In this document: piece by piece, positions 19,501 to 22,500 of the stretch
Position numbering within the stretch: position 1 is the stretch's first letter
How the letters are laid out: each line of letters begins with the position of its first letter
NCBI GenBank assembly: GCA_951804945.1
Contig: OX638158.1
Span: 17,856,001-17,920,000, forward strand
DNA length: 64,000 nucleotides
Origin: Podarcis cretensis
Lineage: Eukaryota
Direction: 5' to 3'
Translations under genes and position numbers: made by a program
The notes under the pieces: model-generated
Told to the model about the DNA's origin: nothing
Databases searched by the model: none
The model's input: only the letters and a program-made list of their open reading frames with translations

Positions 19501-22500
19501 ATTTTCTCTCCCCAATCTCTGCTGGTCTTTGGGCAACAAGAAAAGGTGTGGTGTTTTTCAGGACACTTTCTGAATTTAATTTGTGGTTGATATATCCCTG
19601 CTGCTTGGTTGGTTGTGACTTCTGCATTTTATATTTGCAAGAATTTTTTAGCTACTTTTCAGAATGTAAATTAAAAAACCCCAGAATACATATGTTTGAG
19701 TGAGTTCCAGCACCTCTTTTTCTAGAAAAATAGTACTTGTCATAGCCATCCATTGCAATGGGTCTACTCTGAGAATTAGGAGTATGGGTAGAAGAATGAG
19801 TAGAAAAGAGAGAACTTGGAAGGAGTTCAACCCTTCCCAACTTCTTTGTTTGTTTGTTTGTTTGTTTGTTTGTTAGACTTATATCCCACTTTTTCTTCTA
19901 AGAGCTCAAGGTGGCGTACATGTTTATCCCCCTTCTCATTTAATCCCCACAATAACCCTGTGAGGTAGATTAGACTGAGAGGCAGTGAGGGTTGAAAGAT
20001 ACATAATTCAAACCAGATTGGACTCTAATACCCAGCTTAGAGCCTACTACCCCATGCCACACCACACACCACACCACACACCACACTAAACAAAGCCTTA
20101 CAACACATACATTCCGGTGTAGATGGCTTGTCCTTGCTGGTTCTGGAGACGGGTTTTGGCCAAATCAATGGGGAAAACACAAGTCACCCCCACAAGTCCT
20201 GCTATACCTCCGTTGATTAACTTAGCTGGAAGGCTGTAAGATAAGTTACAATGATATTCCTTGGTACAGGGATTCAAGCAGGTTGTTGTTGCGTGGCTAT
20301 TCCCTCCACCCCACAGGAGAAATGAAATAAAGACACAGGACGCCAGTGTTATAAGTTAATGGGCGAAAATGGCCACAACTTTATTGATTACAGGTAAGAG
20401 AGGTATTGGCTTTAGGCATTGGCCCCTAACCGACTATCCGGTTCTAACCGGGAAGGGTTAAACACCAACAGGGGGAGCTACCCGAGATGCATATCCCTAG
20501 GCGCTCCCCGAGGGGTTACCGCTCGGGGGCGCGCTTTAGGCCCTAGCCTCCGTAGGTTTCGGACGAGGCGTCGCCCCTCGGAGTCCTTTAACGAACTACC
20601 CTTCACTCATTGGGGGAGGTGATGGCGCTCCTCCCCCCCAATCTCATTTGCATGACAATACCCCGGCCAATGCCTACCGCCACCCGAGCCGAACAAACCG
20701 GCTCGCCGCCAATACCCTCAAACCTGTAACCAATCCCTAATTCCCTTAAAAATATCCGACAGCCAGATGTCATTGCCAGCATCAGTCAAGTGCACGCCAT
20801 CCCAGCGATATAGTGCATCCTTGCAATATTGAATTTCGGGGTGTTTGATAACCCGTCCGCCTAGCGCAGCCACCTTACGTGCGACATTGCGCTCCACAAT
20901 CCGCCTGGCTTTATCCACAGCCGCGGGTTTCACCGCATCCCGCCAAAGCCGCCTTTCCAGCAAGGATGACCAAATTATTGTAGTATTAGCGTGAGATGCC
21001 CTCAAACGCTCCAAATCATTCATAATGTTCCACATGAGGTCCACCCCTTTCCTATAAGCCAGGTCGTTCTCACCCAGTTGTATGACCAAGGCATCAGGGG
21101 CACCTTCCTCCGCAATTCTACTGGATATGACTGGGAAGAATTCTTCCCAGCGCATACCCCTTCTGGTAATCCATGAAACTTTAACGTAGCTAGGTAATTT
21201 GAGGTCAGCATCCCAACGCCTGTGCTCGGCTCGGCGTTTTGCCAAATGAACGATACTGTGGCCGGTAATCCACAGTTGCACCAACGCAGCACCTGAAAGA
21301 ATAAAATAGGAGAGCCGAGTGAGGAGGCATGTAAGCGGTGGGTAGGGGAGAATACTGACAGGAGCTTAAAAAGGCTTCCGAATGTAAGTCTTGTATGCCT
21401 GGGATTTCCAACGCCCCATGTCCATAACCCTTTCAGCCGGTAGGCCCATATGGACGGCGGTGGTCGCTGCCCCAATGCGAAAGGAATGTGCAGCGTATTC
21501 CCCATGTGGAAGACCACAGGCAGCGATCGCTTTGCGCATGACCCTCGTGAACTGATGTCTAGAGAGGAGGGATCCATCGGTATGCAAGAAAAAGGGGCCG
21601 TTAAGTTTGGGTCTCACACACAGATATTTTTTAGCATCTTTTACTGGGCAAGGGCCAGCCTTCTGGGTTGCCTGAAGGCGGATCAAGGCTCCCCTACCAA
21701 GCTGATCGGTCTTGGAACTGCGGATTCTTAATAACACGTGCGAGCTTGCTACCGTTACATCATCCAACAATAGGCCCCTGTCGGCTGCACGGTGTTCACA
21801 GACCACCTCGCCAATACGCAAAGCCCCAAAGAATGCGAAGGAAAATGCCGCCGAAAATAATCTGGCCTCGTACCTTGACCAACAAAGGGCCCTAAGTTTC
21901 CTGCGGATTTTGGTAAGTATGTCAAGTGTTATGGGCCTTCTACCATCTTGGCCCTGTGGTCTGGTCCTACGCCAGCCTTCAAGCATTTTCCGGACCACAA
22001 AATGTGAACAGGGGTCAACGGAGAATAGGGCTTTTGAAAAGAAGGATATAGCTGCCGCATGTATATTCATGGTTTTGGGAGCCCGACCTAGATCTCGCAG
22101 GTGAACCATATACTCAATGACCTCCGCCTTAGATGGCGGCCTGCCAGGCCTGAATCGCTCCTTCTTCCTGCGGAAGGATGTAAAGTCTAGCCAAGCCTTA
22201 TTATAAGAGTTTAGAGTGGAAGGAGCCAGCGCAGACAATACTCCCTTTATTGCTTCTCGTTGCCAATACTCCAGAGGTGCTCCGGAAACGGTTGCGGCTG
22301 CTGCTGCGCATCCGGCGCCAATGAGCGAAAGCGTTCCATCTGGAAACGAGACAGAGCATCCGCGATGTTATTGTCTATACCGGGAACAAATTTGGCAGAA
22401 GCGTGAAGGTTCAACCGAAGGCATGAAAGGACGAAATACCGCAAAAGCGAGGCCACTCTAGGGGAATGCGCAGATTGCCTATTTAGAACTGAGACAACCG

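Follow-up and report, generated by a model that had tools for sequence, protein, structure and literature searches.

A young tyrosine-recombinase retrotransposon with a Gag leader predicted to be spliced to the recombinase or to an SGNH hydrolase

The element described here is a young tyrosine-recombinase (YR) retrotransposon whose two downstream genes, encoding the recombinase and an SGNH hydrolase (esterase), lack usable start codons of their own. One Gag leader is likely spliced either to the YR acceptor or to the hydrolase acceptor. Such alternative splicing of a gag leader had been proposed in a sequence-only reading of the same DNA, and it is supported by a pair of isoforms from Zootoca vivipara and by conserved acceptors in related elements. 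For the copy in the window (the whole 64,000-nt stretch of DNA analysed), we infer the splicing itself, the choice of donor, the frameshift and the role of the leader.

The element is a CpG-rich insertion on the minus strand, extending from ~27070 to 20291 of the window, with a CpG observed/expected ratio of 0.94 inside and 0.12 in the flank. The word AACAACAA is found at both edges and is likely the target site. All four reading frames (gag, RT/RNase H, YR and hydrolase) are intact, and the nearest named homologues of the proteins belong to lacertid lizards, which makes a lizard the likely host. Upstream of gag, the words that we take to be CCAAT, GC-box and TATA-like motifs are followed by a putative 5' UTR with no ATG in its 1362 called bases, where ~11 were expected. 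This region also carries short duplications at 26350-26507 (79 bp), 25951-26024 (37 bp) and 26547-26708 (~50 bp), and at 26863 (minus strand), near the putative transcription start, lies the acceptor-like site that ranks second in strength within the element. The 3' non-coding end folded better than its shuffles (z -2.44), and the Rfam scan over 20200-27200 returned no family at gathering score. The positions of all features are collected in Table 1.

Table 1. Features of the element and its immediate surroundings, in window coordinates
Feature	Position	Strand	Remarks
AACAACAA, 5' edge of element	27070..27077	-	Identical word at 3' edge, 20283-20290
CCAAT, GC-box and TATA-like words	26905..26948	-	Assigned from sequence; putative element promoter
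Putative 5' UTR, ATG-free, CpG-rich	25350..26880	-	Includes 169-N gap at 25530-25698
gag ORF, 497 aa	23856..25349	-	C-terminal CCCH zinc finger; PF22628 E 0.0012, below curated cut-off
Shared coding leader (predicted): Gag 1-208 and one further base	24725..25349	-	Homologous to leaders in relatives' gene models
Predicted shared phase-1 donor	24717..24727	-	First intron base 24724
Candidate +1 frameshift site into pol, CCC_TTT_CGC in gag frame	23946..23954	-	TTT_CG at 23951
pol frame (RT and RNase H)	22247..24268	-	+1 to gag; PF00078 E 4.6e-14
YR splice acceptor (predicted)	22340..22362	-	Within RNase H ADALSRFQ codons; phase 1
Tyrosine recombinase exon	21366..22339	-	-1 frame to pol; R, HxxR, W and Y motifs
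Hydrolase splice acceptor (predicted)	21293..21320	-	AG 21294-21293; phase 1
SGNH hydrolase exon	20718..21292	-	GHS, GENDL and DGVH blocks; PF13472 E 1.3e-4, below cut-off
3' non-coding end	20291..20717	-	AATAAA at 20385
Host mitochondrial-carrier exon	20111..20233	-	PF00153 E 2.9e-9; exon ends read from sequence

The element sits sense in a host intron, and the mitochondrial-carrier exon starts 57 nt downstream of it on the same strand; a query for the upstream host exon with an approximate degenerate pattern gave no match. Since it ends 57 nt ahead of the host acceptor and has a strong acceptor and an AATAAA of its own, the element could trap host transcripts. In the DNA run X2, depth was 213-293 for seven internal contigs showing 0-3 differences and 40 for one diverged contig, which corresponds to ~5-7 near-identical copies if 40 is assumed to be the single-copy depth. 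In the same run, summed contig depth reached 2-4e5 at 20280-20700 and ~140-5000 internally; summed depth is not copy number, and the excess possibly reflects solo ends in large numbers or a family of non-autonomous elements.

The element has the gene set of the DIRS order of YR retrotransposons, namely RT/RNase H, a tyrosine recombinase and an ORF resembling gag, and it has neither a DDE integrase nor a protease. RVT_1 was the only Pfam match in pol, which stops 32 aa past ADALSR, and no profile match to a methyltransferase was obtained in the element. The YR frame overlaps the end of pol at 22367-22247; its product matched PF00589 and PF13495, both below cut-off, and was up to 82% identical to YR homologues. 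A PDB sequence search with the hydrolase yielded weak GDSL matches alone (best E 0.056). The absence of a methyltransferase after RNase H is a Ngaro trait, as is the placing of YR after RT/RH, which it overlaps over a short stretch, and the SGNH hydrolase ORF after YR is that of hydrolase-bearing Ngaro elements. Nonetheless, the split direct repeats of Ngaro (A1-ORFs-B1-A2-B2) were not found in the window copy, whose ends share only a 14-bp match, and for this reason the copy is classed as Ngaro-like in layout and not as a shown member. An exact 14-bp match links the 5' region (26973-26986) to the end of the hydrolase ORF (20732-20745). Among the 35 relatives of at least 4.5 kb, four (L159, L105, L131 and L144) have a second copy of a 5' piece behind YR. 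Neither the methyltransferase of the DIRS-like superfamily nor its inverted terminal repeats and internal complementary region were found in the element, and a scan of IMG/VR gave distant matches only (24-34% identity).

The hydrolase-bearing Ngaro elements of Xenopus, DIRS-53_XT and DIRS-54_XT, likewise encode Gag, RT/RH, YR and an SGNH hydrolase ORF after YR according to excerpts of their description (PMC9210276); they too are without a methyltransferase, and the function of the hydrolase is unproven in both cases. Split direct repeats are present in DIRS-53_XT and absent from DIRS-54_XT, as they are from the window copy. None of the strings "splic", "intron" and "frameshift" appears in that description.

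The lack of start codons that had been pointed out for the two downstream genes was borne out. The YR frame is open from 22367 to 21366 and its first ATG, at 22109, is codon 87 of the open frame, ~40 codons beyond the LAPST helix. The open hydrolase frame runs from 21365 to 20718, and its first ATG (21155) lies behind the GHS block at 21263. Re-checking the sequence also confirmed an acceptor before each gene, with AGs at 22341-22340 (YR) and 21294-21293 (hydrolase), both in phase 1. When the 434 AGs on the element strand were ranked by an ad hoc acceptor score, home-made and written after the sites had been seen, the hydrolase acceptor was first and the YR acceptor eighth.

The donor side is less distinctive. 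The five gag donors named earlier all exist in phase 1, but the one homologous to the junctions of relatives is that at 24724 and not the other four. It is weak, ranking 17 among 331 GTs on a home-made weight matrix. A G|GT at phase 1 is a Gly codon, so the abundance of phase-1 donors in gag (14 of the 18 donor-like words listed) is no evidence for splicing. Joining the donor at 24724 to the YR acceptor gives a computed product of 532 aa with an intron of 2385 nt, and joining it to the hydrolase acceptor gives one of 399 aa with an intron of 3432 nt; at its end the predicted leader has a basic run followed by an acidic patch.

Four of six sequencing runs were inspected, over 20280-25460. Contigs of run X1, which is of unrecorded kind, cross both acceptors without splicing, as expected if the run is DNA; no joint was present among those listed, and most of gag was without cover. 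Nine joints were listed for the DNA run X2 and none matches the predicted introns. Run X5 gave no contig and run X6 one partial contig.

Support for one leader serving two genes comes from gene models of relatives. In Zootoca vivipara, LOC118082278 isoform X1 (P0026; 533 aa) consists of a 207-residue Gag leader and YR, and isoforms X2 and X3 (P0012 and P0019; 397 aa) of the same 207-residue leader and the hydrolase; residues 1-207 are 100% identical to isoform X1 in X2 and 99% in X3. The hydrolase isoform was retained over two accession versions. As stated in part of a report on the buffalo annotation (PMC5737279), RefSeq alternative variants must be backed along their whole length by a single long alignment or by the RNA-seq reads of a single sample, a rule that may, by analogy, extend to the Zootoca models. 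The N-terminus of two long hydrolase relatives was homologous to the window gag (P0011, E 3e-15; P0012, E 2e-6). Moreover, nine models hand-picked for a Gag-like leader place the junction at the column of donor 24724 in seven cases and within one residue of it in one. The YR side of the junction is marked by the signature [MW]xxFxxLAP in 25 of the 33 YR proteins that reach it, among them lizard, frog, scallop and sea-urchin models. All of these supporting proteins are computed gene models, including all 10 long hydrolase fusions looked up, which are NCBI models; none of 61 raw-contig proteins (Logan/ENA/JGI) carried a Gag-leader fusion. Finally, a run of pyrimidine codons before a phase-1-compatible pair was found in 19 of 43 short-extension hydrolase proteins and in 161 of 948 in-domain controls, and also in 33 of 88 in the long-leader control.

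It is unlikely, at perhaps one chance in eight, that the acceptors are real but are served by another 5' partner, be it host exons, another donor within gag, or a non-coding leader with translation starting internally or at a non-AUG codon. Stronger donors than 24724 do exist in gag (24427, 24097 and 25033), all giving open products; the ninth of the models above, P0014, runs past the column of donor 24724 to a later donor; and the element is in sense orientation within a host intron. The Podarcis and Lacerta models P0003, P0020-P0022 and P0010 join non-Gag exons, including immunoglobulin-superfamily ones, to the hydrolase exon, and in P0003 and P0020-P0022 this partner, which does not look like Gag, fits such a reading; exonisation or an annotation artefact is a possible source of these joints. 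Against another partner, the junctions of the relatives converge on the position of 24724, the called 5' UTR is free of ATG and the hydrolase has no ATG before its serine.

The DNA of distant relatives, 80 metagenome loci with 28-42% YR identity, offers a test of the acceptors that is independent of gene predictors, and it agrees that the phase of both is conserved, as the sequence-only reading had required. The ADxLSR motif was found in 62 of these loci (57 distinct). Where Gln stands two codons past SR, it is encoded by CAG in 33 of 33 relatives; counting positions +2 or +4, CAG is used in 46 of 49 cases. In upstream pol the share is 343 of 715 (Fisher p 3e-11), and for the overlap downstream it is 71 of 104 (p 4e-4). 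These p-values are optimistic, since the loci are related and their independence is thereby overstated. Where +2 is not Gln, an in-phase CAG is present at +4 in 13 of 24 relatives. On a quick tree of YR, the loci with neither CAG fall in one 17-row clade, those with CAG at +4 are spread over several lineages, and all 24 loci in the half that includes the window carry CAG at +2 or +4. The preference for CGN over AGR at the Arg codon may stem from stop avoidance in the YR frame as well. In 23 of 33 relatives the YR frame has a stop no more than 10 codons before the acceptor. The test named earlier, whether relatives have an ATG before the YR domain, gave a divided answer, with none in 17 of 31 and one present in 14.

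The synonymous bias bears on two further readings. An earlier caveat held that the YR acceptor could be a by-product of the ADALSRFQ codons; it is weakened, because CAG is required by an acceptor and not by the protein. A reading in which both acceptors arise incidentally from RNase H codons and a T-rich spacer, and in which the gene models are prediction artefacts, now appears very improbable. It is true that splicing in the species of the window is derived from relatives and that predictors pair the YR site with implausible donors: about seven of the 33 YR models use the YR acceptor with unrelated donors, several of them in RT or RNase H, so predictors choose this site without a Gag leader, and seven other models read through it. 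Yet the synonymous CAG fixed at the YR acceptor, the phase 1 conserved before the hydrolase and the two-isoform Zootoca locus, with its hydrolase isoform in two accession versions, all speak against an artefact.

Alternatively, YR could be produced as Gag-Pol-YR by a programmed -1 frameshift in the pol/YR overlap. This was proposed for Ngaro by Poulter and Butler (2015), as quoted in an excerpt of PMC13003380, for elements whose YR likewise overlaps the RT/RH end briefly in the -1 frame, and YR is indeed in the -1 frame overlapping the RNase H end in the window and in most relatives. However, an X_XXY_YYZ heptamer is absent from the overlap in the window and is in frame in only 5 of 57 relatives, the fixation of the synonymous CAG would be left without explanation, and the hydrolase cannot be expressed in this way. 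We regard this frameshift as improbable, although somewhat less so than the artefact. The difference from the Ngaro proposal is that here the YR overlap holds a probable splice acceptor, and the likely frameshift is instead a +1 shift at gag/pol.

For the hydrolase, the best acceptor before the gene is in phase 1 in 14 of 18 relatives (binomial p 1.4e-4), these being the scorable loci after three without the motif were set aside from 21 matches. Readthrough of the YR stop codon had been raised as an alternative route to this protein. The observation behind it holds: in the window, the hydrolase is in frame with YR and a single TAA separates them, and the gene models P0013 and P0014 fuse the two proteins. 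In the relatives, by contrast, the hydrolase is out of the YR frame in 9 of 18, with a spacer of 31-385 nt, and readthrough is rejected as the mechanism of the family on this account; the strongest acceptor of the element also sits in the spacer between the two genes. Of the readings weighed, this is the one to which we attach the least probability.

The pol frame is reached in a different way under the preferred reading, in which only YR and the hydrolase are spliced to the Gag leader. Production of pol by a +1 frameshift at TTT_CG is favoured, on sequence grounds, by roughly two to one. The sole in-frame TTT_CG of the window gag lies in the gag/pol overlap, and of the 19 relatives whose pol overlaps gag in the +1 frame, 14 have an in-frame TTT_CG in the overlap; 11 loci with other layouts were outside this count. 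The motif occupies 15 of 1666 overlap codons and 7 of 4644 codons outside (p 5e-5). UUU_CGN is the +1 frameshift motif of amalgaviruses according to part of PMC5052127, where an in-frame TTT_CG likewise lies in the +1 overlap of ORF1 and ORF2; here, in contrast, the overlap is that of a retrotransposon gag/pol and the support is statistical enrichment only.

A third acceptor, for pol, was also tried (TACTAAC...CTCAG, first exon base 23843). It is in phase 2 and leads to an early stop with all seven donors tried, and a plan with three acceptors was therefore rejected for the window copy. The best donor in the long gag ORFs of relatives is in phase 1 in 9 of 11, which carries little weight because Gly codons produce phase 1. 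Six loci (L118, L131, L135, L141, L146 and L154) form a clade whose gag and pol are set apart; among loci of this layout, the best acceptor before pol is in phase 1 in 6 of 9, which suggests that pol is spliced there.

Taken together, the following mode of expression is proposed. One RNA would be made from the element's own promoter. Left unspliced, it would serve as the template for full Gag and as the genome of the element, and would probably also yield a Gag-Pol of ~1,030 aa (by arithmetic) through the +1 frameshift. Splicing of Gag codons 1-208 to 22339 would give Gag-YR, and splicing of the same leader to 21292 would give Gag-esterase, the leader supplying the start codon for both. Its basic run resembles a nuclear-localisation or nucleic-acid-binding patch and may guide the two fusion proteins into the nucleus or onto nucleic acid. 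As a general scheme for the hydrolase-bearing YR retrotransposons of animals, we give even chances to one promoter, Gag with a UUU_CG Gag-Pol and spliced Gag-YR and Gag-esterase, with a YR acceptor held in synonymous RNase H codons from mollusc to lizard and a Gag leader that could steer integration.

Spliced accessory genes are known elsewhere. The ORF3s of LTR retrotransposons, including the GDSL/SGNH esterase of the bdelloid Vesta, typically come from spliced messages, as given in part of PMC5408684, and are likewise accessory 3' ORFs, sometimes encoding an SGNH esterase. Vesta and the other LTR elements of that report use a DDE integrase, whereas in the present element splicing would produce the very enzyme of integration, and ~208 Gag residues would remain on each of the two products. 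In the open-access full text searched, which did not take in Repbase and two key reviews, expression of Gag-YR or Gag-hydrolase by splicing is not described.

For the translation of the start-less downstream genes of YR retrotransposons, a review suggests frameshifting (excerpt of PMC13003380). Under the splicing model, the actual recombinase and esterase would be Gag-leader fusions of ~530 and ~400 aa, and biochemistry should therefore use these forms; the unexplained hydrolase would gain a defined protein to test. Moreover, ORF1 seems to set the insertion preference of Ngaro (excerpt of PMC8547959), and a Gag leader on YR, a link that is our own, would offer a mechanism by which it may do so.
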